Shown: positions 34,112 through 48,982, numbered from the stretch's first letter. The stretch is DNA of 64,000 nt from Candidatus Bathyarchaeota archaeon (GCA_963826715.1 CAWGYA010000008.1:640001-704000); one strand, 5' to 3'. Notes: a model not told the origin generated them from the letters alone. Made by a program: numbers and translations.

Positions 34112-37100
34112 CTATTTAAAATCCAAAAGAGTTGACTGTTTAGGTTTTTTGTTGTCAAACATTAATGTGAGTTCTTCCTTTATTAGATCCATACGCTGGG
34201 TGTAATATTTGGGCAAACCGTACTTGTCAACTAGCTGCTGAGCCGCTACCAGATACTTCTCAATTCCACCGCGATAAACGGTCAAAGAAAGTTTGCCGCT
34301 GCATGAAGGACATTTCCCCACAAGAGGCAGCCGACGAAATTTTCTATTACAAGCTTTACATCGAAACCCCTGCGTAGAAAAAGCACGCATGTTTCCTGCA
34401 ATGTCACGCATGAAGTGAGTATTGAGAACTTTAAGCGCTACACTTTTTGCGCTTACGGCATCGATTTTTTCTCCTAACTCCAATTGCATGTGAAGCTTGT
34501 CTATCATGGATTTGAATTCTTTGTAGCTGCTGTTAGCGTTACCCAAATTAATGTTGGTACAAGGCGTAGTATATTGAAAACCTTCAAATTGCGCCTCCGT
34601 TCCCAAACGATGACTGATGGTATCCATAAATGCACTCACTGGTCTGGCTTCGCCTTTATCCCAGGTTTTGAGGAAGAATTCAAGAGGGTAACTGCTACTG
34701 ACGTCAAAGTCATGAGCTTGCCGCTGAACCTCTTTAGTGTTACAGACCGGAATCAACAAAATCGGCGCATCCATAATACCACCAATCTGGGCTGGCAAAA
34801 AAACCCGGGAAAAATTAAGCAAAGTATCGAGCCCAAGCATAATGGCATCTTCGTCCCCGTCACAGTCCCTTCGCTTGGCAGAGTGCCAAACAGGATGTGC
34901 GTAAATGACGTTTCGGTCAGTATAACCCACGACACGACCAAGAATACAAGCACAGGTGTGTGGAGCCAAACCAAAAATAAGATGTCCAACGAGGTCATCA
35001 GCTTTTTTGAAGCTGTAATAGGGTTGTTGTTTGTAAACGCGAGTTAGTAGATCATCGATGAAAGCAGCTATTTGTAAAAAATACTCGCCAGCGGTCCAGG
35101 GAATAACAACGTCTTGGATTTTAAGTTCGCAAACCTGGTTGGGATCAGTTAATGGCAAACCATGTGTATCGGCTATGTAACCCATCTGATGCATCTTTTC
35201 GATCGAGACACCGATTTCTGCTGGCGTAATGTGAGTGAGCGGAGCATTTGTGGCATCAAAACGTATTGTGCCGTCCTTGTAAACGGATAAACCATACTTA
35301 GCACGCAAGATACCTTTCTCTAACATTTCAGGGGTCTTGTCAAGATTAGTTAAGCCCTTAACACCCCGCAGCATCTTAGGCGCGGAGTAACCCACCGAAA
35401 TGCTGGCGTTATTAATTAGCTCCTTGAAGTTAACGGGTTGACGTTGATATAATACAGCGTTTGATTTACAAGAGCCACAGTAAGCATCTTTAAGAGTTCT
35501 ACCGCATCGAGGGCAAACTTTCTCAGGAAATGTCGGTCCCCCGCAGATTTCACATAGGACTTTCCGAGTATAAGTTTTACACTCTTGGCACTTACGTTTA
35601 ACCATCTCCACAAAAACTGGACCTTTCTTGACCGCTTCCATAAGGTCACGGTGAGAACCTCCAGCTAAACTAACGGGAAAAAGAACGTGCACATTAGGTT
35701 TCATTTCTCTATGCTTAGCCTTTTCAGGCCTACCCATTCGTCCACCAATGTAGGTTGGTGCTTTATCTTTAATCACTACACCCGACAACACACTAAGAAG
35801 CTCCAAAACGGATGTTACCTGCATAGGCTGAGTAAAACGTGTTGTACCATAACCTAATGTGAACGCTAACGCAGTTGCTTCTGGGTCCACCAAAACAGCT
35901 TTGCCTTCAACTATTTTATGGGGAACAAAAATCTTGCGCAGAACCTTCACCGCTTCGCCGTTAGCTTCACCTATAATTTTAGAAACATACCCCTCCTGCA
36001 AAGTCACATCACAGCAACCCAGCCACTTCTGCAGGCATTCAATATCCTCAAAGGTAGGTGTTCCCGTCCAGAAGAACGTGCTACTAGGCGCTAGGGGTAT
36101 TTTCAAGGTTTGGCTAAGAACTGCGGCTTCTTTAGTTGTAGGTTTGTTTTTGAAAGGGTCACAGATAAATCCCTCGAGTTTGTCATATGGAAGATTGCAT
36201 GCTTCCGCAGCTTTTTGAGTATCACCACTGAACTTGGCTAAAACGGCGTTTTGAAGATCTTTACTCCACCATTCCTCCACGTATCCAGAGGGCGGAAGCG
36301 CCTTGTTACTGTAAAGGAAATCGCCGAAGTCAATCAAAATGTCACCTAAGAATAGGATTTTCTGGATTTTGCCCTTAACTTCTGAAAAATTTTCCAAAGA
36401 AACCCGAACCACTGAACCATCCTTGAGCAATACCACGGGTTTCTCAATGCTATCGACGGGCATGGTGACGCCGCCTTTGCCAGGCAACTCAAGACGCATT
36501 TGGGTACCTGCGGCTAGAAAATTCTCCACCACAAGCATGGTGGCTGGGTGTATGCCCACTGCGGAAAGCCCTGTGTTGCGAGATCTGCCGTATCTGAGTC
36601 GGAAACCACCACGGGTTGAGGGAAACGCGAAAATGGGGCGTCCAGCAATAACGTCATCCATGAATCCGCCTGATTTCTTCTCTGATTTTTTCTTAAAACT
36701 CTTGAGCCATTCCCAACCAGAAAAGCCCAGTTTATCAATTATCACATAAACTTTTTGTGCCCGTCCAACAATCCCGTCATTAATAACTCGCAAAGCGCCG
36801 CCACGAACACGGTTTGTTTCCACCCTCTCCAAGTTGCGGTATGAGGAAACCTCAACTGGGTCAGATTCAGTACCTGTACACTCTACGGGCACCAAATTGA
36901 GTGCTTTACGTAGTTCCACATCTGGGATGTGATATTGAAAGCGTCCTACAGAGCGTTCATATAGCCTTAGTTCTTCTACAAAACGGGAGATTTCCTCCTC
37001 TGTGGGCTTGTATACATCTAAACCTAATTCACGACGGACATAGTCGCCGACGACCAATGTTAAGGCTTGGTCAGTTCCACCTGCGGAGCGAATTGGACCA

Positions 37101-37534
37101 GCGAAGTAAACCCCCAGATAGCATGTTTGATCAGCGTTCTTTTTGATTTTGACTTGTGCTATGCCCTGGATTGGTGCGGCAGTTAAACCTTCAGTAAAGA
37201 TAGCCAATGCCGTGCGAATAGCCTGCTCGGCTAGCTTCTCTGGATCTTTCTCTTCTTCAGTTTGAGCAAATTTACCTTGAGCAATTTCCTGTGCTGCTTT
37301 AAAGGCGATCTCTTCACGTGGCAGCATCTTGCTTAATTCTCTGATGCTGACTGCGACGCCTTTGGGTCCAACTAATCCTTCTACCAAATCAGCAATGTCC
37401 TTTGCAATAATGCATTCAGTTTTAAGAGACGGATCTAAGCCATTAGATCTAGCGCTATCGCTGATTTCGTAGATTTGTTTCAACTGGTTGTTTAAGGTAT
37501 CAATGTAGTTTTGGTAACCCTTACTGATGCTCAA
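34112..37534 (-). CDS. polC: DNA polymerase D large subunit DP2
   Basis: AGPIRSAGGT, GGFRLRYGRSR, GRMGRPEKA, KRRDCDGDED, Zn fingers, C-terminal PIP box QSTLLDF; no intein seen. Confidence 0.98.
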   Translation of the reverse strand: MSISKGYQNYIDTLNNQLKQIYEISDSARSNGLDPSLKTECIIAKDIADLVEGLVGPKGVAVSIRELSKMLPREEIAFKAAQEIAQGKFAQTEEEKDPEKLAEQAIRTALAIFTEGLTAAPIQGIAQVKIKKNADQTCYLGVYFAGPIRSAGGTDQALTLVVGDYVRRELGLDVYKPTEEEISRFVEELRLYERSVGRFQYHIPDVELRKALNLVPVECTGTESDPVEVSSYRNLERVETNRVRGGALRVINDGIVGRAQKVYVIIDKLGFSGWEWLKSFKKKSEKKSGGFMDDVIAGRPIFAFPSTRGGFRLRYGRSRNTGLSAVGIHPATMLVVENFLAAGTQMRLELPGKGGVTMPVDSIEKPVVLLKDGSVVRVSLENFSEVKGKIQKILFLGDILIDFGDFLYSNKALPPSGYVEEWWSKDLQNAVLAKFSGDTQKAAEACNLPYDKLEGFICDPFKNKPTTKEAAVLSQTLKIPLAPSSTFFWTGTPTFEDIECLQKWLGCCDVTLQEGYVSKIIGEANGEAVKVLRKIFVPHKIVEGKAVLVDPEATALAFTLGYGTTRFTQPMQVTSVLELLSVLSGVVIKDKAPTYIGGRMGRPEKAKHREMKPNVHVLFPVSLAGGSHRDLMEAVKKGPVFVEMVKRKCQECKTYTRKVLCEICGGPTFPEKVCPRCGRTLKDAYCGSCKSNAVLYQRQPVNFKELINNASISVGYSAPKMLRGVKGLTNLDKTPEMLEKGILRAKYGLSVYKDGTIRFDATNAPLTHITPAEIGVSIEKMHQMGYIADTHGLPLTDPNQVCELKIQDVVIPWTAGEYFLQIAAFIDDLLTRVYKQQPYYSFKKADDLVGHLIFGLAPHTCACILGRVVGYTDRNVIYAHPVWHSAKRRDCDGDEDAIMLGLDTLLNFSRVFLPAQIGGIMDAPILLIPVCNTKEVQRQAHDFDVSSSYPLEFFLKTWDKGEARPVSAFMDTISHRLGTEAQFEGFQYTTPCTNINLGNANSSYKEFKSMIDKLHMQLELGEKIDAVSAKSVALKVLNTHFMRDIAGNMRAFSTQGFRCKACNRKFRRLPLVGKCPSCSGKLSLTVYRGGIEKYLVAAQQLVDKYGLPKYYTQRMDLIKEELTLMFDNKKPKQSTLLDFK

Positions 37535-37657
37535 AGCGACCTTTCACAGCCATGATATTCGGTATAGGGTTATTTTGGTTTTCCTTAAATCAAATGAAAA
37601 TACTACGAGAACCCCAAGAACAGATGTTTTTAGACAATAAAATAGTAGCCTTTTTGC

Positions 37658-37921
37658 TTATTCGGGCTTGGTTACAGGTGTTCTTTTCTGGCTGCCATAA
37701 ACACTGTCAGTGAGCATGCAATAAACGTCCACTTCGCCCTGCGCAGATCGAATCGTGAATTCTTCTTTGAGCCCACAACTGCTGCATTGAGCAACGGAGC
37801 GTCCTCCTTCTTCACGGAATATTTCCACGCGCACAGTTTCTTTTCCGCATGTCGGGCAAGAGAAGAATTTAGGTAAACGCTTCTTTGGAATATGAACAAC
37901 TTTTTTCCTTCTTCGCCCCAT
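37658..37921 (-). CDS. elf1: Transcription elongation factor Elf1
   Basis: MGRRRKK...FSCPTCG...CSSCG...VDVY. Confidence 0.9.
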   Translation of the reverse strand: MGRRRKKVVHIPKKRLPKFFSCPTCGKETVRVEIFREEGGRSVAQCSSCGLKEEFTIRSAQGEVDVYCMLTDSVYGSQKRTPVTKPE

Positions 37922-38000
37922 ACAATAACCTTCTAAAGTGTCCCGTAACGGTGATTAATATTTATACTTGTCCTTAAATACTTGCCTACCAACGTTGACA

Positions 38001-38861
38001 ATGAGGCTGCGTAAAACTGTGAAGTTAACGCCCACTGTATTAGATATGGATTTTTCGATGATAGAAAAAAGAATCTGCCGTTTCATAAAAGAATATGTTG
38101 AAAACGCAGGCGCCAGCGGGATTGTTTTAGGGCTCAGTGGGGGGGTGGACAGCGCAACCATAGCGGCACTGTCAAGCAAAGCCCTCAACGGCAACCATGT
38201 TATTGCACTTATGCTTCCCGAAAATGAAACCCAAAAACAAAAAGACATCGAAGATGCCAAAACAGTCGCTGACCTATTTGGAATACAAACTCAGGTCTGT
38301 GACATGACTGCTGCGGTTGAAAATATCTACGAAAGCATCCCTATCTTCGACTCTACAGATAGGCTTTGCAAAGGAAACATCAAAGCGCGAACCCGCATGA
38401 TTTTCCTCTACTACTACTCCAACAAACAAAACTGCATAGTCTGCGGCAGCTCCGACAAATCCGAAACCATGATGGGTTACTTTACCAAGTGGGGTGACGC
38501 TGCAGCCGATATCGCTCCAATCATTGACCTTTACAAAAGTCAAGTTCGCATGCTAGCCGTGCATATGGGCATACCTAAGGAGATAGCCTACAAACCTTCC
38601 ACGCCCGGGCTTTGGCCCGGCCAGCTAGCGGAGTCGGAGTTGCAAATAAAATATGAAACCCTCGATCTGATTCTCTTTGGGTTAGAACACTTTCTGTCAC
38701 CAGAGGATATTGCCGAGCAACTCGGCATAGAACAAACAGTCGTGAACCGAATTAGGAGCCGCTGGTTAGCTCAAGAACACAAACGCCGTCTTCCACTGGC
38801 ATCGAAACTAGGGTTTCGAACGGTCACAAACGATTTTAGACTCCCAAGACACACCTACTAG
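38001..38861 (+). CDS. nadE: NAD+ synthetase (NH3-dependent synthetase domain)
   Basis: GLSGGVDS, GNIKARTRM, GYFTKWGD, KPSTPGLW, HKR. Confidence 0.95.
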   Translation: MRLRKTVKLTPTVLDMDFSMIEKRICRFIKEYVENAGASGIVLGLSGGVDSATIAALSSKALNGNHVIALMLPENETQKQKDIEDAKTVADLFGIQTQVCDMTAAVENIYESIPIFDSTDRLCKGNIKARTRMIFLYYYSNKQNCIVCGSSDKSETMMGYFTKWGDAAADIAPIIDLYKSQVRMLAVHMGIPKEIAYKPSTPGLWPGQLAESELQIKYETLDLILFGLEHFLSPEDIAEQLGIEQTVVNRIRSRWLAQEHKRRLPLASKLGFRTVTNDFRLPRHTY

Positions 38862-38870
38862 GTGGACACC

Positions 38871-39704
38871 ATGAAGGACAAAGTTAAGTTGGCACTTTGC
38901 CAAATTAGTAGCGACCGAGAAAACAAAGAAGCGAACCTCCAAAAAATTGAGGCTTTAACTCGACGCGCTGAGCAGGAGGGGGCGGAAATTGCGATTTTTC
39001 CAGAAATGTCGCTTACTGGCTATGTACTCCATGACCAAGTTTACGAGCTATCTGAACCCATCCCAGGACCATCCGTTCAGCGGATAGAGGAATTGGCGAA
39101 AGATACAAAGCTACATATTATTTTTGGCATGCCAGAGCTCTCCGAAAAAGCCCAAGCCACCATATTTAATACCGCAGTATTAGTGGGTCCTGAAGGTTTC
39201 ATCGGCAAATACCGCAAAATGTATCTACCAACCCACAGTGTCTTTGAGGAAAAACGCTACTTCCGACCCGGCTACAAACCTGCCGCGTTCCAAACCAAAT
39301 TAGGAAATATTGGTCTAACAATTTGTTATGATGTGTTCTTCCCTGAGGTATTTCGGCTGCCTCGACTGATGGGCGCCCAACTAATTGTCTGCATTTCTGC
39401 GTCGCCAGCGGTGCGACGAGCTTATTTTGAAATCCTCACAGCTGCCCGTGCTTTGGAGAATACGGCGTATTTGGCTTATGTGAACCTTGCTGGAGTGCAA
39501 GATGGTTTGCAGTTTTGGGGCGGAAGCCGCCTAATCAACGCAACAGGGGATGTTTTAGCTCGAGCAAAATATGATGAGGAAGATTTTGTGGTTTGCGAAG
39601 CGGATTTTTCGGATTTACGGGCTTCTGAAGCCTTTATTCCGACGCTGCGGGATTTGCGCCCTGAGCTTTATCGAAAGCTTAGAAAGCTTTCAGAGAAATT
39701 TTAG
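38871..39704 (+). CDS. Carbon-nitrogen hydrolase (nitrilase superfamily)
   Basis: E-K-C triad in FPEMS, YRKMYL, ICYD; ARALEN. Confidence 0.92.
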   Translation: MKDKVKLALCQISSDRENKEANLQKIEALTRRAEQEGAEIAIFPEMSLTGYVLHDQVYELSEPIPGPSVQRIEELAKDTKLHIIFGMPELSEKAQATIFNTAVLVGPEGFIGKYRKMYLPTHSVFEEKRYFRPGYKPAAFQTKLGNIGLTICYDVFFPEVFRLPRLMGAQLIVCISASPAVRRAYFEILTAARALENTAYLAYVNLAGVQDGLQFWGGSRLINATGDVLARAKYDEEDFVVCEADFSDLRASEAFIPTLRDLRPELYRKLRKLSEKF

Positions 39705-39708
39705 AAGT

Positions 39709-39843
39709 ATCACATATAAACTTGGCTATTGGTGTTTGATGTCACAGGTGCATCACAAAGCTGTGATACTGATAGATTTATTGAAAATCACGGTGATTTG
39801 ACTGTGAGGAGTGACGTCACGGATCGTTTTTTTATGTCTCACA
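39709..39843. repeat. GTGA/TCAC array A
   Basis: 10 cores in 135 bp, including palindromes ATCACA-AAGC-TGTGAT (39752-39767), AAATCAC-G-GTGATTT (39785-39799) and GTGACGTCAC (39811-39820). Confidence 0.8.
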
Positions 39844-40189
39844 GATTTTTTTAAAAGTTTATGTTGCTTTGAAGCGGGTTTGCCGCTAAAAAAATGTGTT
39901 TTATTTACATAAGGTTGTAAAAAGTGCGCGTTTGCCTTTTTGACTGTTTTAAAAAAGAGCATTATTCGTGTAAAGTTAATAATATTACTCCTTTGATTAA
40001 TCGTAGAATTTAGCGTTTTTTGTGTTAATCGCATCTAATTTTTGTCTAAATAGTAAATTAACGATTTTTCAGGTTTATTTTTATTTTTAGAGGTTAGATA
40101 AGAGCTTTATTTGGTAAGCATATTAGCTTTTTGAGGTCTGTAAAGGTTAAAAAGCTGAGTTAGTATACAAAAGTGTATCCATTTAATCT

Positions 40190-40687
40190 ATGGGAGAAAG
40201 CATAAGTTTGAAGCTAAAAGACGGTGTAACAGCATGGTTAAACGGGGCATTAAACGACCCTATTGTCAAAATTCTGGCTAAAAACAGCCAATTAACAAAA
40301 ACGCAGCTTGAAACACTGCTTATTGATGTTTTGGCCGAAAATATATCGGGTAAACAGCTAAAGTACGATGATAAAGCCGCTTTAAGGTTAACAAGGGCTA
40401 AAATAAGTCGCGGTTCGTTTAATAGGACTTTAAAACAGTCCCGTGAAAACGTCATTAAGTCCATCTACACGGTGCTACTTTTGGGATATTTGGGAGTTTT
40501 TGAGACTACAACTCTTGACCCGTACCTCGAAATAGCAAATAAACTGCACGAGTATGTGGAAGCACACCAGGATCTGCCTAACAAGGAGGAGGAGCTAAAA
40601 GACCACCTAAAAGTTATAGAAATCATCCGAGAAGAGCTAGAAACGAGCCTAAAGCGACTTTCTAGTCCCTCAGAAAAGCTTTTGTGA
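40190..40687 (+). CDS. Hypothetical protein with Tfx/sigma-region-4-like HTH pattern
   Basis: SQLTKTQLETL...ISRGSFNRTLKQSRENVIKS resembles Tfx-type HTH spacing; helical C-terminus. Confidence 0.6.
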   Translation: MGESISLKLKDGVTAWLNGALNDPIVKILAKNSQLTKTQLETLLIDVLAENISGKQLKYDDKAALRLTRAKISRGSFNRTLKQSRENVIKSIYTVLLLGYLGVFETTTLDPYLEIANKLHEYVEAHQDLPNKEEELKDHLKVIEIIREELETSLKRLSSPSEKLL

Positions 40688-40974
40688 CGTCACAAGTCAC
40701 AGTTTTTGCCATCATTTTTTACCTATTTTATGATGTTAAAAGCGCTCCTATAAAGCCTACAATTATCAAATATTTCTACAAAATAAGCTCTAATTGACGT
40801 TATTTTCCTCTTGGACAGGCAAGCATTAATGGGTAAGCGTTAAGATTGTGATGTGTGATGTCATGTTTGGATGTGATAATATCACCGTAAACCTTAAAAA
40901 TCCATGGGAATTATTGTGATGTGTGATGTAACCTTTAAAATCACGGTTAAGTCACAACTGAATCACATGGTGAT
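40682..40974. repeat. GTGA/TCAC array B
   Basis: 13 cores; TTGTGACGTCACAA palindrome (40682-40695); 17-bp direct repeat ATTGTGATGTGTGATGT (40845-40861, 40913-40929); GTGATA-A-TATCAC (40873-40885). Confidence 0.85.
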
Positions 40975-40980
40975 GAGATC

Positions 40981-41757
40981 ATGGCTGACCTTACATGGGT
41001 AATCTTGGGGGTTTTGGTGGCTGTAACAGCGGTAGCTGCCTACGAATACTACAGGCAAATCCGTATGGCCCACAAAGAATACAGCAAAGCTCGCGATTTT
41101 ATTCAAGATATAGTGCTAAGTTTCAACCGTGAACTCAAACGAGAATCTAACCGCTTTGAATCCATGGTCGCGAAAGTCGATGGAAGCTACGTGTCAGCAG
41201 AATCCAGCTACAGAAAAGTCGAAAGCTTGGAGAAAAAAGTTGAACCCCTACAAGAGCAACTTAGCGTCCTAACCCAATCCTATCAGTCCTTGTCACAGAA
41301 CAGCTCAGAAACCAGCCAAAATAGCACCACCATACTCTCTGGGATAGAGGGGCTTGAATCCAAGCTTAAAGACATCGAAGCTACCCAAGAAACGTTGAGG
41401 AACAGAATCACCGGTTTCGAGGAGCAAATACAGAAACTCTCCATGGCTCAGCCTTCTGTTAAGCAGGCCGAATTGGAAGTTGTGCTGCCACCTATTCCCA
41501 TTAAACGAGATAAAGCCCTAGCCGCACTTACTGAAACGGAGATTGTGGTTTTGGAGATGCTCGTAAAAGAAGGCGCTAAAACAGCCCCTGAAATTAAAGA
41601 GCGGGTTAAGCTTAGTAGGGAACATACTGCTCGTCTTATGAAAAAGCTCTATGAGGAGGGCTACTTGGAGCGGGAAATTGGTAAGATTCCGTTCCGATAT
41701 AGCCTTAAAAAGGAAATGGAGTCCCTGCTTCAGAAAATCGAACCCTCAGTCGCATAA
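40981..41757 (+). CDS. Membrane-anchored coiled-coil winged-helix protein
   Basis: N-terminal TM (WVILGVLVAVTAVAAY), about 130-aa heptad-rich region, Pro linker, C-terminal wHTH (LTETEIVVLEML...SREHTARLMKKLYEEGYLER). Confidence 0.8.
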   Translation: MADLTWVILGVLVAVTAVAAYEYYRQIRMAHKEYSKARDFIQDIVLSFNRELKRESNRFESMVAKVDGSYVSAESSYRKVESLEKKVEPLQEQLSVLTQSYQSLSQNSSETSQNSTTILSGIEGLESKLKDIEATQETLRNRITGFEEQIQKLSMAQPSVKQAELEVVLPPIPIKRDKALAALTETEIVVLEMLVKEGAKTAPEIKERVKLSREHTARLMKKLYEEGYLEREIGKIPFRYSLKKEMESLLQKIEPSVA

Positions 41758-41796
41758 AAATAGGTTGATTTTCACATTTTATGAAGAGTTGAGAAC

Positions 41797-42228
41797 TTAC
41801 TTTATGCGTGACTTTATTGTTGCCGCTGGAATGTTAGACACTGTTTTGTATTTGAGGTTGTTTGATGTACCAGTGCGCATCAACAAGCCCTTTGTAGTCA
41901 TTCTTGAAAGGTACGTGGATATTGTACTTAGGCTAACGGGTTCTTTGAGTTCCTGTTCATAAATTGATTGAATATCTTTGGAGGAGAACCAGATTAGGGG
42001 AAAGTTTTTCTGGATAACTAATTGTACCTTTTCAAAACGAGAAAGATTCCGGTTGGATATTGTAGGGCTCGAAGAGACATTGGGACTTTCAGTCGGCGCG
42101 CTACCTAGCAATTCGACAAGATCCAGTAGGCGCAGAGCTTTATCGCGGGTAACTTGACCTTCAAAAGCAATAGTATAACGATTACCATCACTATCGAACA
42201 GCTCAACGCGCATTTTGCGAGCCGGCAT
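41797..42228 (-). CDS. Two-domain winged-helix protein transcribed away from oriC
   Basis: Small N-terminal beta/alpha domain, S/P linker, C-terminal wHTH (FSSKDIQSIY...SLSTISTYLSRMTTKGLLMR). Confidence 0.75.
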   Translation of the reverse strand: MPARKMRVELFDSDGNRYTIAFEGQVTRDKALRLLDLVELLGSAPTESPNVSSSPTISNRNLSRFEKVQLVIQKNFPLIWFSSKDIQSIYEQELKEPVSLSTISTYLSRMTTKGLLMRTGTSNNLKYKTVSNIPAATIKSRIK

Positions 42229-42244
42229 CTAATTTACACCTAGG

Positions 42245-42604
42245 TTGTTCACAAAATCTACACTTCACGGCATATAACTGTGATGGTGAACAAAGAGAAA
42301 TAGACGGGGTTATTTTAGGCTTTGAATTTATTTTTATCCATATTTTAGACTTTTTACAGGATAACAAGCTTCACATGTTAACAGAACTACAAAATGATTT
42401 CAGTTCAAGCTTAGTTCGCTTTTTCCAGTAGAAGCAGAGGGGTGGCTGCTTCACAGTAAAGAGACAGAATTAGAGTAAATTAACAAAAAACAAGTCTTTT
42501 AAAGCAACAGTTTTTTGGTATTTAATATGGATTCACAAATCTGTGAACGGTAAAGATGAAAAAAATCAACTAAAAAATATTTTTAGCAGCCAGGATCAGG
42601 TGAT
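42245..42604. repeat. TTCAC/GTGAA array C
   Basis: 9 cores, 7 of them TTCAC/GTGAA; inverted pair TTGTTCAC/GTGAACAA (42245-42252, 42286-42293); TTCACA-AATC-TGTGAA (42532-42547). Confidence 0.7.
42423..42443 (+). promoter_or_regulatory. ORB-like element
   Basis: TTCCAGTAGAAGCAGAGGGGT resembles the ORB consensus TTCCAGTGGAAAC...GGGG. Confidence 0.65.
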
Positions 42605-42677
42605 TAGTATGTCATGACTAATTTACTACCTGTTATTGTGTTTTTAGCTATTTTTTATTGGTTTTTGAAGCTAAACG

Positions 42678-42701
42678 CACACCCCTATGTTTCCGCTCGA
42701 A
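42678..42701 (-). promoter_or_regulatory. ORB element
   Basis: Minus strand TTCGAGCGGAAACATAGGGGTGTG with G-string. Confidence 0.8.
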
Positions 42702-42779
42702 GTTTTACGGGTAAAAAAGAAGTTTGGCAAGGCTGAAAAAAAATTCGCATAAGTTTTGTTTAGGATTTTAGACAGATAT

Positions 42780-42865
42780 CATTAATATATAAAAATCCTA
42801 TTAGAACTTAGAGTATAGTTCTATATATATATATAATAATAATAATAATATGAATTTTAAAATAA
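42780..42865. other. AT-rich DNA unwinding element
   Basis: Very AT-rich tract with (TA)n then (AAT)n run at about 42822-42851, between inverted ORBs. Confidence 0.75.
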
Positions 42866-42877
42866 CTCACTGATTTT

Positions 42878-42901
42878 TTCCAATAGAAACATTGGGGTGT
42901 G
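42878..42901 (+). promoter_or_regulatory. ORB element
   Basis: TTCCAATAGAAACATTGGGGTGTG, inverted relative to the 42678-42701 box. Confidence 0.85.
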
Positions 42902-43048
42902 TGTTCTTCCCTTTTTGTTTAATTGTTATAGCCTTTAACCATCCTTTTGTAGGAATATGTTGTGCCAAAACCAGTTTTTTGTACTGATTCATTTATCTGT
43001 TCCACTCGAAGTAACGGTTCTACCTGTGTAACAGATAGCGTGGACAAC

Positions 43049-44284
43049 ATGGGAAATTCAAGCATATTAGATGACGTATTTGATAATTTCGTTAACGGGA
43101 CAAAACTTTTCAAAGATCGAGAAGTTCTACGTCATGACTACTTACCTGATAAACTACCCCATAGAGAAGATCAAATTCGCCTTTTAGGTGCTACTGTGGC
43201 TCCCGTGCTAAAAAATGCTCGATGCTCAAACATCTTCATTTATGGTAAAACTGGGACCGGGAAAACTGCCGTTGCAAAATATGTTCTCAGTCATTTAGAG
43301 TCAAAAGCTAAAGAATACGGTGCACAAATCAAATTTTGTTATATTAATTGCCGCATGACAGGTTCAGAATATCGTGTTTTTGCTAATCTTAGCCAAAGCT
43401 TAGGCTTAACAATTCCATTTACTGGGCTCTCTGTTGGAGAAGTTTTTGACAGATTTCGCTCAGGTCTTGATCAATCCAGAATAATATTCATTATTGTTCT
43501 CGATGAGGTGGATGCCCTAATTAAGGATCGTGGCGACGCCTTCATGTACGAACTTACTCGAATAAATGAAACACTGAGTAAAAGTAAGGTTTCTATAATC
43601 GGCATATCAAATGATTTACGCCTTAAAGAATTTCTTGATCCAAGAGTATTCAGTTCGCTTAGTGAAGAAGAATTAGTTTTTCGACCTTATGATGCAGCGG
43701 AACTTCGTAACATATTACTTGAACGTTCAAAGTTAGCTTTCCAAGATAACGTTTTATCAGATTCTGCTCTGAGTATTTCATCTGCTTTAGCTGCAGCGGA
43801 ACATGGTGATGCACGACGTGCTCTGGATTTGCTGCGTGTAGCAGGTGAAGTAGCGGAGCGCGAGAATGCAAAATCTGTTACTGAGGAGCATGTTCGGCAA
43901 GCCGAAAAGCACATTGAGCATAATCGGGTTGTTGAAGCCCTCAACAATCTTACCCTTCATTCCAAATTGGTGCTACTCAGTGTCTATCACTTAAACAAGT
44001 CAAATTCAACCACAGGTGAAATCTATGATGTTTATAATGAACTCTGTTGTGAGATGGGTTCGGGACTGCTAACTCAGCGACGCTTGGGCACATTGGTGAA
44101 TGAGCTTGATTCAATGGGACTTGTCAACGCCAAAGTGGTAAGTATGGGTAGATACGGCAGAACTAAAAAAATCCGTCTTGAAATCTCCAGAGGCTTAATC
44201 CGTGATGTTTTTGGTGGTGATGCCCGTTTCAGTCAAATCATTAGCTATAAGACTAAGGGTATGCATAAACCCATTGATAGCTAA
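43049..44284 (+). CDS. cdc6: Orc1/Cdc6 replication initiator
   Basis: LPHRE, YGKTGTGKT, VLDEVD, F.PY, HGDARRALDLLR, C-terminal wHTH GRYGRTK; ATG 43049 preferred over GTG 42962. Confidence 0.97.
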   Translation: MGNSSILDDVFDNFVNGTKLFKDREVLRHDYLPDKLPHREDQIRLLGATVAPVLKNARCSNIFIYGKTGTGKTAVAKYVLSHLESKAKEYGAQIKFCYINCRMTGSEYRVFANLSQSLGLTIPFTGLSVGEVFDRFRSGLDQSRIIFIIVLDEVDALIKDRGDAFMYELTRINETLSKSKVSIIGISNDLRLKEFLDPRVFSSLSEEELVFRPYDAAELRNILLERSKLAFQDNVLSDSALSISSALAAAEHGDARRALDLLRVAGEVAERENAKSVTEEHVRQAEKHIEHNRVVEALNNLTLHSKLVLLSVYHLNKSNSTTGEIYDVYNELCCEMGSGLLTQRRLGTLVNELDSMGLVNAKVVSMGRYGRTKKIRLEISRGLIRDVFGGDARFSQIISYKTKGMHKPIDS

Positions 44285-44285
44285 T

Positions 44286-45866
44286 TTAAAGAAAAGAAAG
44301 CACAGTTGTCTCCAATGTTTGAAGATTCACCACCGGCACCTTGCCTGGTGTTGGGACTAGCCCTAGCTTTTCCATATAGTCAGTTTGTTCTTGCCACCCA
44401 CCTGAATTAACAACTAACACTCCTCGGTAATTACAAAAGCCTAAAACGTGGATGTGCCCTGCGTGGAAGATGTCCGGAACTTTGTCGACAACTAGGAAAT
44501 CTCGATTTTCTGGTGAAAGCATTGTTTTTCCACCATAGACAGGAGCAAGGTGCCGACCTTGCAAAAGCAGTTTCATTGATTTTTCAGGGTGGTCATTATC
44601 CATTCCCGGAACAACTCCGATTATATCATTTAGGCTTACGCCATGAAACATCAAAACCTCAACTCCATGTATACTGAGGTAGCATGGACTGCCGACAGAA
44701 TGAATGTTATTTTTCCCTTTAATTCCATTTAGATAGCCCTCAGGAATAGCGGGTTGAGGCTGGGATTTACGTGCGGCATCATGATTGCCTGGAGAAATTA
44801 CAATTTCAATATAGTCAGGAATTTTACTAAGGTATTTTGCGGCAAAATTATACTGTTTGTGGATATTGCGGATGGTTAGCTCTTTCTGTTGATCAGGATA
44901 GATACCGATACCATCCACGATGTCCCCTGCAACTAATACGTATTTTACTCTACCAGCGATTTCCTGCATGGACGGTGAGCCGTATTTCCCTCGAAGCCAT
45001 TGTATAAAGTTTTTAAAAGCCTTTTTGTTAAATTTAGTGCTTCCCACATGAATGTCTGATGTTAAAACTGCGTAAATGGGCTCATTTGCTCGATTTGGTG
45101 GTTTTCTGCCTACTTCTGGAAGAATTATATCCTCTGCCATTAATAGGTCGGAGCGAGTTTTAATAACGGCTGCACAGAAAATCGTGTCGGGCAAAATCAT
45201 AAGTGCCTTCTTCTTTACTTCTTCTGGTGCCTTCTGCGGAACCATAATAGTTGCATTTCCTTGAAGATCCTCTACAGAGAGAATAATATTGTTTTTTGCA
45301 TCACGCTTCTCAGTTAGCATGCAGATGATTTTGAGCTTGGTTTTGGGCTGAGATTTTAGTGCTTCCGCAATAGGTGTGGCGGCTCTAACATCCATTCTTT
45401 GGCGAAGCACTCTTTCTATGCGTTTAAAACGGTCTTGGAAGTAGCTGCTATATTCGTTGAGGGTCCCGTTGGAGGTCAATTCTCCCGTATGGTCTTGGAG
45501 GATGACTAGTTCTGAGGGAATGTATTTGGCGTAAGGATAAAACTCGTTTGCATCTTCGCCTTGTATTGTTATTGCAGGCTTGGGGGCCCTTGGTGTTTCC
45601 GTTGTGGGGTAGCTTACTTGAGGAAGTTCAACTATAACTTCAGGGATTGTCGTTGTCTGCTGCATAATCGCTTCCAAAAAGCTACGTTCGATAAACATGG
45701 GTTTTTCCTGCAGTGCCTCTAATCTCTGCAAAGCCATGTTCATTATCAAGGCGGGGTCGTGTTGTGAGTTTTGGATGAGAAACTCGAAAGCTTCACTATT
45801 CAACTGATAACCTGCAGCAATAGTAGCCTCGATTGCATTTTGGAGTTTCTCTTCTACACTTATCAC
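44286..45866 (-). CDS. polB: DNA polymerase D small subunit DP1
   Basis: YFQDRF, SDIHVGS, AGDIVDG, PGNHD, HLAP, GHIH, NSGGWQEQT. Confidence 0.96.
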   Translation of the reverse strand: MISVEEKLQNAIEATIAAGYQLNSEAFEFLIQNSQHDPALIMNMALQRLEALQEKPMFIERSFLEAIMQQTTTIPEVIVELPQVSYPTTETPRAPKPAITIQGEDANEFYPYAKYIPSELVILQDHTGELTSNGTLNEYSSYFQDRFKRIERVLRQRMDVRAATPIAEALKSQPKTKLKIICMLTEKRDAKNNIILSVEDLQGNATIMVPQKAPEEVKKKALMILPDTIFCAAVIKTRSDLLMAEDIILPEVGRKPPNRANEPIYAVLTSDIHVGSTKFNKKAFKNFIQWLRGKYGSPSMQEIAGRVKYVLVAGDIVDGIGIYPDQQKELTIRNIHKQYNFAAKYLSKIPDYIEIVISPGNHDAARKSQPQPAIPEGYLNGIKGKNNIHSVGSPCYLSIHGVEVLMFHGVSLNDIIGVVPGMDNDHPEKSMKLLLQGRHLAPVYGGKTMLSPENRDFLVVDKVPDIFHAGHIHVLGFCNYRGVLVVNSGGWQEQTDYMEKLGLVPTPGKVPVVNLQTLETTVLSFL

Positions 45867-46088
45867 TTTTTAGACCTTTATTCCCTTTTTTTATACCGTG
45901 TATTTGTTAGGCTCTATGGCTTTTGGGTTATTTACTGTTTTTTGTTTTTATAGTTCCCCCTGATTAAAACTCTTTTTCAAACTTTTAACCCATAGCTTGA
46001 AAAATAGTTCTTTGATTGATAATGACGGGGTTTAAGCAATTTATATAAGCTGTGTAATGTTTAGATTTGTTATATCTTGGTGTGCTTT

Positions 46089-47060
46089 ATGGGTGATTTG
46101 CGTAAAATTCAACAGACGCCAACCGGAACCTTCTTTGTTTGTTTACCTCGCGAATGGGCGAGAGAGAATGGTCTGCAGAAGGGAATCTTGGTTGATCTAG
46201 ATGTAACTGCTGACGGCAAACTTTTGGTTGACTCCAAATACGATGTTGAACAGCTGCCCAAAGTGGCATCGCTTAAGGTTGGACCATTTTTGAACCGCGA
46301 AATTGTTGGACGGTATCTATTAGGATATGATGTTATTCGTGTTGAAGCCAAGGATCGTATTGACTCAAGCGTGCGAACCTTGATTAAATCAACGGCTAAC
46401 TCTTTGGCGGGCTTGATGATTGTTGAGGAAACAACCTCTATGATGTCGCTTCAGTGTCTTATGCAGCAACCTTTCACGTCACCCGAGAAGATTTTGCAGC
46501 GCAATAATGCAAGCGCAGCGAGGATGATTCGTGATGCAGCAAACTCATTTGTTAACTTAGACATGGATCTTGCTAAAAATGTGATTGAGCGGGATGTTGA
46601 GAACAACAAGTTTTATTTTTTACTTGTCAGAATTTTGAGAACCATTATCCAAAATCCTCGGCTAAGCGAAAAACTTGCCATATCTCCCATTGAATGTCTT
46701 GATTATCGTTTAGCTTCAAGCCTTATTGAAGGCATAGGAGATGCATGTGTGCAGATGGCATCGACTACCTTGGCACTCAACGGAACCAAACTTTCGGAGG
46801 ACCTACGCAAACTGTTGCTGGATTTGCAGTTAACCTGTTGCGAAGCAAATGAGCAAGCCTTCAAAGCATTCCTTGGTAAAGACATTTCACTAGCTGAAAA
46901 TGTTCGAAGCTTGAAAGCTAAAATCGAGGTTAACTCGTCTAAAATCGAATCTGTAGCAAAGGACTCCTCGGTGGATTTAATGCCGCAGATTCTTTCAGCA
47001 GTGTCCTTTTTACGGCAGATTTACGAACGCAGCGTTGATATGGCAGATTTAGTTGTTTAG
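46089..47060 (+). CDS. AbrB-PhoU phosphate uptake regulator
   Basis: RKIQQT..TFFVCLPREW AbrB domain, YLLGYD, two PhoU-like helical repeats. Confidence 0.85.
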   Translation: MGDLRKIQQTPTGTFFVCLPREWARENGLQKGILVDLDVTADGKLLVDSKYDVEQLPKVASLKVGPFLNREIVGRYLLGYDVIRVEAKDRIDSSVRTLIKSTANSLAGLMIVEETTSMMSLQCLMQQPFTSPEKILQRNNASAARMIRDAANSFVNLDMDLAKNVIERDVENNKFYFLLVRILRTIIQNPRLSEKLAISPIECLDYRLASSLIEGIGDACVQMASTTLALNGTKLSEDLRKLLLDLQLTCCEANEQAFKAFLGKDISLAENVRSLKAKIEVNSSKIESVAKDSSVDLMPQILSAVSFLRQIYERSVDMADLVV

Positions 47061-47175
47061 GTTTCTTAAATAATCGTATTGATGTGTTGGCTCAGAAATT
47101 TAAAGTGCAGTAGTATGTTGGTTCACTATTGCTAAAGGGTTAAATCTACAGGTCACTATTCACAATGAGATATCT

Positions 47176-47799
47176 ATGTCCTCAGTTACTGATAAAATCG
47201 CTAATGCTCTCTTTATCTCTGAGTGCCTGCGGTTTGACAGCTTCAAAATCAAGTCAGGAGCGACCAGCCCCTACTACATCGATTTAGCGCGTGTTCTTTC
47301 GGCACCAATGCAGATGGATGCTATAGCAGAGTCTGCGGCAGAGAAAATACGGCAAATCCAAGAAGGAGAATGCATAAACAAGTTAGCGTCAATCGAGCTT
47401 AAAGGCGCTTTAATTGTCCCCAGCATAGCTCTGAAGCTCAACATGCCTTGCATAATTGTTCGAAAAGAAGCGAAAGCGTATGGTATTACGGGTCGAATTG
47501 CTGGCGCTGATGTTAACAAAGGTGATAACATTCTTTTTTTTGACGATGTTATCAGCGAAGGCTTATCAAAGGTCGAAGGAATTAAAACACTTTTGGATTT
47601 AGGGGCAAACGTGAAGCATATTTTAGTTGTAGTTAATCGCGAACACGGTGGCAAAGAGCATCTAGAAAAACTCGGCTACCGTGTTCATGCTTTAGCTAAA
47701 ATCTCCGACGTAGTTACGTCGCTATCCGACAGAGGTTATATTTCAAAGGAGCAGGCTGCTAGAGTCTTAGATTATATCGTACAGTTCAAACTCGAATAA
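47176..47799 (+). CDS. pyrE: Orotate phosphoribosyltransferase
   Basis: KSGATSPYYID, RKEAKAYG, FDDVISEGLS. Confidence 0.85.
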   Translation: MSSVTDKIANALFISECLRFDSFKIKSGATSPYYIDLARVLSAPMQMDAIAESAAEKIRQIQEGECINKLASIELKGALIVPSIALKLNMPCIIVRKEAKAYGITGRIAGADVNKGDNILFFDDVISEGLSKVEGIKTLLDLGANVKHILVVVNREHGGKEHLEKLGYRVHALAKISDVVTSLSDRGYISKEQAARVLDYIVQFKLE

Positions 47800-47977
47800 T
47801 GTATACTTCTATTGATCAATGGTGTGTTACCTTGTGGGTATTTAGCTTTCCTAAAAGGGGCCTTATCAAGATACGTAATTAGGCAATTCATTGACTAACC
47901 TATAACCTATCTACAAAAGCAATCCATATTCTTTATTGCTTACTCGCCCCAAGAATAGCTGCAAGGAAGTTACAAAA

Positions 47978-48982
47978 ATGCCCAGCGAAATCGTTCAAGC
48001 ACTTCTTAACCCAGAAACTTACCCCGAAGAATCAGGCGAAATTCAACTTATACAAACCCATATCTCGTTTGTTTTTGTAACCAAAAATTACGTCTACAAA
48101 GTCAAAAAGTCAGTAAACTTTGGTTTTCTAGATTTCTCCACACTCGAAAAAAGGCATGTCTTCTGCGATAAAGAACTCCAACTAAACAGGCGGCTTTGTC
48201 CAGAAATCTACTTATCCGTAGTTCCCATAAACAAAGTTGACGCTATCATAAAGATAGATGGTGTGGGCGAAACAATCGAGTACGCAGTTAAAATGAAGAG
48301 ACTGCCCCAAGAATGCATAATGACCACCCTTCTGCAAGAGAGCAAAGTGGGTAAGAAAACCATAGATGAAATCGCATCTATAGTCGCCAAATTCCACGAA
48401 AAGGCTCAAACCAACAAAACCATTAGCAACTTTGGCTCCCTTGACATTGTGAAAGCCAATTGGAATGAAAACTTTTCTCAGACCCAAAAATACATAGGAC
48501 AAACCATAACCAAAGCCCACTTTGAATTCATCAAGAATAAAATAGATCACTTCATAACTCAAAACAAACCTCTTTTTGAAGAGCGCATCACTCACGGATG
48601 CATCCGTGACTGCCATGGTGACTTACACTCGGGGAACATTTTTGTAACAGACAAAATATGCATTTTTGATGCCATCGAATTCAATGATCGCTTCCGATAC
48701 AGCGACGTAGCCGCAGATGTAGCGTTTTTAGCTATGGATCTCGACTACCAAAACCAAAGGGACTTGGCCAACTACTTCATTTCGCAATACCTTGCTTACT
48801 CCAAGGATACTAAACTAAAACGGGTTTTATCCTTCTATAAGTGCTATCGTGCTTATGTGCGGGGAAAAGTGGTTAGTTTCCGACTTGACGATTCAAACAT
48901 AAAAGCGGAGGAAAAATCTGTCGCAACTAAGGAAGCCTCAGCATATCTACAGCTATCCTTTGAGTACGCTGTAACTCTTTGA
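47978..48982 (+). CDS. COG2187-type aminoglycoside-phosphotransferase-like kinase
   Basis: QTHIS, YKVKK.VNFGFLDFSTLEKR, CHGDLH, DAIEFN, YRAYVRGKV. Confidence 0.85.
   Translation: MPSEIVQALLNPETYPEESGEIQLIQTHISFVFVTKNYVYKVKKSVNFGFLDFSTLEKRHVFCDKELQLNRRLCPEIYLSVVPINKVDAIIKIDGVGETIEYAVKMKRLPQECIMTTLLQESKVGKKTIDEIASIVAKFHEKAQTNKTISNFGSLDIVKANWNENFSQTQKYIGQTITKAHFEFIKNKIDHFITQNKPLFEERITHGCIRDCHGDLHSGNIFVTDKICIFDAIEFNDRFRYSDVAADVAFLAMDLDYQNQRDLANYFISQYLAYSKDTKLKRVLSFYKCYRAYVRGKVVSFRLDDSNIKAEEKSVATKEASAYLQLSFEYAVTL

Follow-up and report, generated by a model that had tools for sequence, protein, structure and literature searches.

In a window of 64,000 nucleotides from a Candidatus Bathyarchaeota archaeon (GCA_963826715.1), a single gene beside the predicted replication origin encodes a protein with a predicted transmembrane (TM) helix, a long helical stalk, a flexible linker and a winged helix-turn-helix (wHTH). 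We see in this protein, the target of the analysis, a good candidate for a connection, hitherto unknown in archaea, of the origin region with the cell membrane. The reading that we prefer, and to which we give a probability of roughly 0.4, is that it is a site-specific, membrane-anchored DNA binder, which would assemble on the TGTGAY repeat arrays of its own locus, repress itself and hold the origin-proximal region at the membrane. To our knowledge, chromosome positioning and separation in archaea beyond the Sulfolobus and haloarchaeal models are largely unknown, and neither membrane attachment of an archaeal origin nor a membrane-anchored wHTH at such an origin was found in the literature searched. 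The locus offers a testable candidate that comes down to a single protein, a single DNA motif and a single place, and the target is present both in the cultured ammonia oxidiser Nitrosopumilus maritimus (homologue of strain SCM1, ABX13693.1 / WP_012216179.1) and in uncultured Bathyarchaeia. The features of the locus are collected in Table 1.

Table 1. Features of the window around the target gene and the predicted origin (residue numbers are those of the target protein).
Feature	Position	Strand	Remarks
Large ORF read as PolD large subunit (DP2), 1140 aa	34112-37534	-	Read by eye from the translation; homologues in related loci
TGTGAY array, 8 matches, including one GTGACGTCAC palindrome	39709-39816		Upstream of ORF165
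ORF165, 165 aa, triad member	40190-40687	+	Conserved, all-helical, no known family
GTGACGTCAC palindrome plus GTCAC	40684-40700		At the ORF165 stop codon
Target-promoter TGTGAY array, 10 GTGAY matches	40848-40974		Covers the target promoter
Target gene, 258 codons (258 aa)	40981-41757	+	ORF with ATG start; GGTGAT just before the start
N-terminal TM helix (predicted), residues ~4-22	40990-41046	+	Hydropathy and charge bias over 40 members; AF2 helix, pLDDT >94
Long cytoplasmic helix (predicted), residues 23-156 (~134 aa)	41047-41448	+	Variable in sequence and length; break at 107-113
Juxtamembrane motif, residues 32-55	41074-41145	+	A1 consensus EYxxAKxxVxDIVxSFNRxL; Y34 nearly invariant
Flexible Pro-rich linker, residues 157-173, with VVLPPIPIK	41449-41499	+	pLDDT <50 at 161-172
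Winged helix-turn-helix, residues 174-250	41500-41730	+	Pfam, family alignment, AF2, Foldseek
Third helix of the winged helix, residues 213-225, REHTARLMKKLYE			R213, H215 and R218 invariant in A1
ORF143, 143 aa, triad member	41797-42228	-	Small N-terminal domain and C-terminal winged helix; reads away from oriC
Predicted oriC	42420-42899		Three ORB-like repeats and an AT-rich stretch at ~42780-42870
ORB-like repeats	42420-42444, 42680-42701, 42875-42899	+, -, +	Direct, inverted, direct
orc1/cdc6 initiator gene	42962-44284	+	NCBIfam ORC1-type model, 1.6e-148
PolD small subunit (DP1)	44286-45866	-	Pfam; place conserved

The build of the protein had been read from the sequence as a membrane helix, about 130 aa of heptad-rich sequence, a VVLPPIPIK linker and a C-terminal wHTH, and this order was confirmed by hydropathy over 40 family members, Pfam and AF2. 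The AF2 model of the target, for which an alignment of 40 family members (A1) was the input, had a mean pLDDT of 87 and was formed by helices at residues 2-106 and 114-156, separated by a break at 107-113 (an S/T/N/Q-rich stretch), a disordered segment at 161-172 that takes in VVLPPIPIK, the winged helix at 174-250 and a short helix at 244-250. Between the TM helix and the linker there are thus ~134 helical residues, whose heptad character was judged by a crude a/d count only. The TM helix and the juxtamembrane motif are conserved in A1, the stalk is variable in sequence and length, and the C-terminal block is strongly conserved (IPIxRxKALAxLTxTELxVLExL...TREHTARLMKKLYxxGYLER..KIPYxY), with R213, H215, R218, M220, L223, R231, P237 and Y240 invariant. 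The matches of the long helix in Pfam, NCBIfam and the PDB were solely of coiled-coil type; those that the family profile gave among PDB sequences (chemoreceptors, tropomyosin) were rejected as coiled-coil look-alikes matching by composition, and residues 1-170 had no usable match in the ESM Atlas. A homodimer prediction with two copies and A1 scored 0.08, against a mark of 0.42, a value that counts neither for nor against dimerisation.

An identical protein of 258 aa was already recorded (P0487), and the possibility of a spurious ORF was rejected in view of thousands of homologues. The gene has one copy in its own genome. The public gene call P0001 (246 aa) has its start at 41017, the GTG codon of residue 13, which lies within the TM helix; the ATG at 40981 gives back the N-terminus seen across the family. 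Truncated calls such as P0003 and P0108 conceal the TM helix in some database entries.

With respect to the membrane topology, the 19-residue Kyte-Doolittle mean was ≥1.6 in 37 of the 40 A1 members, and two of the three exceptions were truncated gene calls. Only three residues (MAD) precede the TM helix of the target on the outside; the corresponding stretch was 0-4 residues long in 39 of the 40 A1 rows and 13 in the other. Over all 40 rows this short tail carried on average 0.05 K+R and 0.93 D+E, and the 15 residues C-terminal of the TM helix carried on average 4.9 K+R (n=40). Since basic residues follow the TM helix and an acidic tail precedes it, the positive-inside rule predicts an N-out/C-in topology, in which the protein would insert into the membrane with its bulk in the cytoplasm. 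A cleaved Sec signal peptide, which would have contradicted the anchor proposed from the sequence, was rejected on the charge pattern alone: there is no basic n-region, the tail of 0-4 residues is acidic and the C-terminal flank is basic, which is the reverse of such a peptide. The remark that the protein has almost no extracellular portion and no obvious sensor also stood, as no sensor domain was matched; with this predicted topology there is no room for one outside the membrane.

The anchor is not common to all relatives. In Nitrosopumilus the TM helix is kept and the stalk is shorter, giving proteins of ~200 aa. Versions with coiled coil and winged helix that lack the TM helix were found in 8 of 20 phylum loci, including those of Methanomethylicaceae type, and therefore a membrane anchor cannot be essential to the core function of the wider family. 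In two phylum loci there were short versions of 143-146 aa, made of a TM helix and a winged helix with no stalk. In L164:4521-5314 and L165:4594-5411 (phylum families f40 and f45) the stalkless gene shares its strand with the ORF165 homologue and either overlaps the end of that homologue or adjoins it, and this arrangement suggests that the pair is co-translated there.

Regarding the winged helix, its core scored above the Pfam cut-offs for both MarR (PF01047, 30.0 bits, cut-off 24.6, residues 183-232) and TrmB (PF01978, 29.8 bits, cut-off 25.6, residues 183-241), in the latter case at the C-terminus of the protein and not at its N-terminus. Together with the AF2 fold, these scores bore out the wHTH. 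The remaining Pfam and NCBIfam matches of the target were coiled-coil look-alikes below their cut-offs; Lrs14 (NF040939) reached 28.8 bits against an NCBIfam cut-off of 90, and EzrA (PF06160), a match of coiled-coil type, 19.2 bits against 39.6. Regulators of the MarR family are soluble proteins of ~140-150 aa that dimerise through helices N- and C-terminal to the wHTH, and the TrmB family is defined by a C-terminal sugar- or effector-binding domain. The dimer helices were not found in the AF2 model of the target, which has the TM helix and a 134-residue helix before the wHTH and one short helix after it; the effector domain is absent too, as the protein stops 8 residues past the wHTH fold. 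By model score the winged helix is thus MarR/TrmB-like, but the protein as modelled has neither the helices for dimerisation nor the effector domain by which those families are defined. A Foldseek search matched the winged helix to repressors of MarR type and to AspA, a centromere-binding protein of archaea, with TM-scores of 0.65-0.69 on the target chain; the AspA match is that of a generic winged helix (67-69 aligned columns). Source databases label members of the family as MarR family regulators.

The protein belongs to a large family. A word-indexed protein search gave 3850 matches at E ≤0.001, the best 120 of them 61-100% identical, and an exhaustive search of 1.84 billion cluster representatives gave 530 at E ≤0.001 and 47 at E ≤1e-30. 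The nearest named relatives are from Candidatus Bathyarchaeota/Bathyarchaeia, including Bathycorpusculum, and the family also reaches Nitrosopumilaceae and Methanomethylicia. Of the genomes sampled, 101 of 151 in the class carry a member, and 270 of 401 in the phylum gave a match to the target profile; the weakest matches in the phylum (E ~1e-6) are probably generic winged helices. In family f32 of the phylum sample the target was present in all 56 genomes; proteins identical or nearly identical to those of the f32 loci are listed at NCBI under Nitrosopumilus adriaticus, N. zosterae and N. maritimus, as 'winged helix DNA-binding protein' or 'MarR family'. Literature on the family or its accession numbers was not found; the supplementary gene-context tables of PMC3914693 and PMC2643942, which lie outside the accessible part of these papers, might list neighbours. 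Three loci filed as MAGs of Methanocella sp., Limnocylindrales bacterium and Nanoarchaeia (L118, L128 and L148) carry homologues 49-57% identical to the target, as Bathyarchaeia ones do, and are probably mis-binned Bathyarchaeia contigs.

The order of genes in the window is PolD large subunit, a small zinc-ribbon ORF, NAD synthetase-like, nitrilase-like, ORF165, target and ORF143, followed by a gene-free stretch of 730 bp, orc1, the PolD small subunit and a PhoU-like gene. An origin beside the initiator gene with repeats of this kind is the usual archaeal layout, as described in the accessible part of PMC4010727. The distance from the stop codon of the target to the first ORB is 663 bp, in agreement with the sequence-only reading, which had put the gene under 1 kb from the origin. 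ORB-like elements occurred at 2.17/kb in the 900 bp upstream of orc1 and at 0.036/kb elsewhere in the fetched loci; half-sites with a G-run were 60 times denser upstream of orc1, with at least two there in 36 of 47 loci. Because ORB-like half-sites concentrate upstream of orc1, we take the spacer between ORF143 and orc1 as a conserved origin.

The target is the middle gene of the triad ORF165-target-ORF143. The model of ORF165 (pLDDT 86.8, pTM 0.75) is all-helical, and the protein had no Pfam family, no PDB sequence match and no Foldseek match at E ≤0.001; a likeness to Sigma70_r4 (14% of one Atlas cluster, TM-score 0.55-0.58 on short chains) is a weak lead only. Among the members of ORF143, 24 of 36 gave weak matches to Penicillinase_R.

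To follow this position across genomes, the coordinates of the target and of the main-type orc1 (a match at E ≤1e-100) were compared in the same 151 genomes of the class. A main-type orc1 was present in 73 of the 101 target-bearing genomes, on the same contig in 62 and on a different one in 11. The distance between the two genes was below 5 kb in 61 of these 62 genomes (<2 kb in 42, 2-5 kb in 19), the sole exception lying at 17.5 kb, and in 55 of the 62 the target was upstream of orc1 on the same strand. Homologues scattered in unrelated metabolic operons would have spoken against a role at the origin; what was found instead is this linkage and the same cluster in Nitrosopumilaceae. In all five complete genomes of that group that were tested the gap between the homologue and orc1 is 1.15-1.22 kb, or the two adjoin across the record start, and the full order PolD-L, ORF165, target, ORF143, orc1, PolD-S is seen in loci L152-L155 and L169. 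The linkage of target and orc1 spans at least two classes, within which related genomes are not independent.

From the class, 40 loci were fetched, picked for the presence of the target and most also with orc1 on the same contig; within this selection ORF165 was found in 38, ORF143 in 34, orc1 in 37 and PolD-small in 34, in the order PolD-L, Elf1-like, (NadE, nitrilase), ORF165, target, ORF143, orc1, PolD-S. The triad was intact even where it is rearranged relative to orc1 (L057, L058, L068) or 17 kb away from it (L067). No partition NTPase (ParA/ParM/TubZ) was found in the conserved cluster, which holds just ORF165, the target, ORF143, orc1 and the PolD genes. A distant orc1 paralogue was the only orc1 match in 28 target-bearing genomes, mostly of family f18. 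In this family (for example L069-L071), 24 of 27 genomes have the target and just that paralogue (E ~1e-45), and in the three loci fetched from it the target adjoins PolD-small with no orc1 or ORF143 between; the main initiator of f18 may have been lost or replaced.

The promoter of the target and both flanks of ORF165 carry repeats of the motif TGTGAY. The interval 40751-41000 contains 10 GTGAY pentamers, where the average over the window is 0.77 per 250 bp. The promoter array includes a pair of GTGATGTGTGATGT tandems at a distance of 68 bp, and a TATA-like element (TTTAAAA or TTAAAAA) comes after each of them; the TTTAAAA ~40 bp before the ATG of the target has tandem repeats just upstream and three ATCAC copies just downstream. 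Each end of ORF165 carries one GTGACGTCAC palindrome. In the whole assembly of 2.64 Mb just two clusters of at least six matches per 150 bp were detected, both at the target locus; by our own estimate the seven GTGAYRTCAC palindromes counted genome-wide are about the number expected by chance. An ORF of 93 aa (39753-40034, minus strand) overlaps the upstream array and the AT-rich spacer before ORF165, and is probably no gene. The arrays lie 1.5-2.7 kb away from the ORBs of oriC, and the idea that they are ORB elements themselves was rejected on the difference in motif and in place. A known RNA gene was rejected as well, because Rfam gave no match at E ≤1 in 39500-43100 and the tRNA search of 36000-48000 was empty.

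The arrays are conserved with the locus. Where ORF165 immediately precedes the target (36 loci), 7-19 matches were counted in the ~330 bp ahead of the target, with 0.3-1.5 expected, a comparison that is biased, as are the neighbourhood counts, by the choice of loci for holding the target and by related genomes that are not independent. In the same loci TGTGAT was enriched 27-fold (present in 34 of the 36) and TGTGATGT 83-fold; the preferred spacings of the motif were 7 and 10-11 bp, and a 10-bp palindromic form exists. Nitrosopumilus loci carry the same arrays. A strict search for TGTGAT x3 in five Nitrosopumilaceae genomes matched the target locus in three: the locus alone in two complete genomes, and the locus with unrelated tandem repeats in G372; in G499 and G151 the matches were elsewhere only and the locus was missed.

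It was also possible to ask which of the neighbours goes with the arrays, as the locus encodes three wHTH/HTH candidates for their binding. The arrays upstream of the target persist where ORF143 was not found locally (L055, L064, L065) and where ORF165 was not found locally (L163, L168, L170), and all eight non-Bathyarchaeia loci without ORF165 (within L160-L171) have 4-7 matches. This persistence, seen at loci selected for the target, fits with the target as the putative binder. Where a HypF- or XRE-type gene is inserted, the arrays remain beside ORF165 and not beside the target, so ORF165 is an equally good candidate binder.

Taking these results together, we propose the following mechanism. 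The N-terminal helix would insert into the membrane, leaving three residues outside, and the helix of ~134 residues would serve as a stalk, presumably oligomerising. The flexible linker would carry the winged helix, with its almost invariant third helix (REHTARLMKKL), whose most likely DNA target is the TGTGAY array at its own promoter and flanking ORF165. [quoted passage not shown] ORF165 and ORF143, small predicted DNA binders encoded beside the target, would probably take part in the same assembly. We infer, then, that the target inserts into the membrane, oligomerises and is the binder of the arrays, and that it may act on the position of the origin, on segregation or on initiation. The lack of a sensor, the predicted integral anchor with its long stalk, a DNA-reading helix that hardly varies, an array that is unique in the genome and greatly exceeds a simple operator in size, and a place at the side of oriC that is fixed across classes are hallmarks of a positional DNA-binding system.

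The main competing explanation is that the protein acts only as a membrane-bound local transcription regulator, which with or without ORF165 and ORF143 would bind the TGTGAY operators and control its own operon and perhaps the expression of orc1 or PolD; attachment to the membrane would then limit or gate its activity, for example through the state of the membrane, with no mechanical role in holding DNA. We consider this nearly as likely as the tether. The MarR/TrmB-type winged helix above the Pfam cut-offs, the MarR repressors among the best structural matches, the 'MarR family' annotation and the existence of TM-less relatives all agree with a regulator, and repeats straddling a TATA-like box before the start codon are the usual layout of an archaeal autoregulated repressor. 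However, a regulator held at the membrane with 0-4 residues outside in 39 of 40 members has no sensor domain, and at least 18 copies of the motif in two arrays, with no comparable cluster elsewhere in 2.64 Mb, leave its own locus as the sole visible target, which is unusual unless the locus itself is the point; a position beside oriC kept across classes also stands against it. The proposal of the sequence-only reading, a mechanical tether in preference to a one-component sensor, hence stood in part: the missing room for a sensor, the linkage to orc1 and the genome-unique promoter array argue for it, and the TM-less relatives and the standing of the local regulator argue against.

Two other explanations appear improbable to us. 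The protein could be a latent transcription factor, parked at the membrane by its TM helix and stalk until proteolysis of the linker frees the winged helix, as in membrane-tethered factors elsewhere. A disordered linker (157-173) that separates the stalk from the winged helix, with the conserved IPIKR segment at its end, would suit such a release, but the conserved cluster contains no protease gene, the long helix of variable length is left without a role, and the genome shows no further target sites. Alternatively, the winged helix might bind protein, as certain winged helices of archaea do, and the target would then be a membrane scaffold for replication or division factors such as Orc1, PolD or Cdv/ESCRT parts; we give this equally little weight. 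The gene does lie between PolD and orc1, and the build recalls membrane-anchored coiled-coil scaffolds like EzrA, though the Pfam EzrA score is far below its cut-off as given above. Against a scaffold stand the invariant Arg/His/Arg of the third helix, the closest folds, which are the DNA-binding MarR proteins and AspA, and the conserved repeat arrays at the locus, which call for a DNA binder.

Returning to the tether, its counterparts are bacterial. RacA of Bacillus subtilis, a sporulation-specific protein, has an N-terminal HTH and a long coiled coil, no TM helix, and is anchored via DivIVA; its binding sites form a cluster close to the origin, and it fixes this part of the chromosome at the cell envelope. 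The target shares with it a DNA-binding domain joined to a long coiled coil, but in reversed domain order and with no sequence match. RocS of Streptococcus pneumoniae bridges a specific origin-proximal DNA motif and the membrane. RicO of Staphylococcus aureus is described, in the accessible part of the report, as a bridge between an origin-proximal DNA motif and the membrane whose loss misplaces origins (bioRxiv 10.64898/2026.03.06.710092). RicO and RocS have an N-terminal DNA-binding domain and a C-terminal amphipathic helix with no long stalk, in contrast with the predicted integral TM helix and stalk of the target, and no homology of these bacterial proteins to it was detected. The clustered sites of these three origin tethers could have a parallel in the genome-unique conserved arrays, for which the target is a candidate binder only, and their membrane attachment in the predicted TM helix with positive-inside bias of 37 of 40 family members. 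From these comparisons the target appears homologous to no known tether.

The centromere binders ParR, with its site parC, and archaeal AspA of pNOB8 (PDB 4rs8, 5k5q) are small DNA binders, each encoded beside short repeats arrayed over its own promoter. The winged-helix fold match of AspA to the target was mentioned above; ParR and AspA are soluble, and the target cluster has no partner ATPase or motor gene. The MarR/TrmB regulators share the winged-helix core and are the best Foldseek type, but in the target the TM helix and the 134-residue helix replace their dimerisation helices or sugar-binding domain. Proteins of the ToxR/CadC type and archaeal ArnR combine a DNA-binding domain held by a TM segment with an extracytoplasmic or HAMP-type sensor part. 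The target would be held at the membrane in the same way, but without the sensor domain.

A wider idea is that ORF165, the target, ORF143 and the arrays form an ancient chromosomal, centromere-like module for origin anchoring, common to Bathyarchaeia and Nitrososphaeria and with TM-less derivatives in other Thermoproteota, that would fix oriC to the membrane and be coupled to the start of replication or to segregation. We regard it as tentative and rather doubtful. If it were true, the module would be the first case in archaea of DNA tethered to the membrane at an origin, and a working counterpart of RacA, RocS and RicO made from unrelated parts. Should the tether idea fail, two findings would still be unreported in the literature searched: the conserved triad of small predicted DNA-binding proteins, and the repeat array, unique in the genome, next to oriC, orc1 and PolD. 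Both probably bear on how replication genes are controlled.

Some lineages carry further genes within the locus. In 8 of the 40 class loci (L035:5643-8184; L036-L038, L043, L044, L046, L047) there is an insert of 2.6 kb between the target and ORF143, which in L035 contains a gene for a HerA-like ATPase of 516 aa (DUF87, E 2.9e-9) and an ORF of 340 aa without Pfam match; this could be a HerA-NurA-type pair beside the origin. A gene of ~775 aa lies between ORF165 and the target, in either orientation, in L050, L053, L061, L066, L069 and L071, and its N-terminus (VQGVGFRPF...) was judged HypF-like from the sequence only. Directly upstream of the target and on the same strand, a protein of 190-208 aa whose N-terminus was read, again from the sequence only, as an XRE-like HTH is encoded in L050:3473-4045, L051:4991-5590, L054:5227-5805 and L059:3506-4132; with it, the small DNA-binding proteins of the locus would number four in some lineages.
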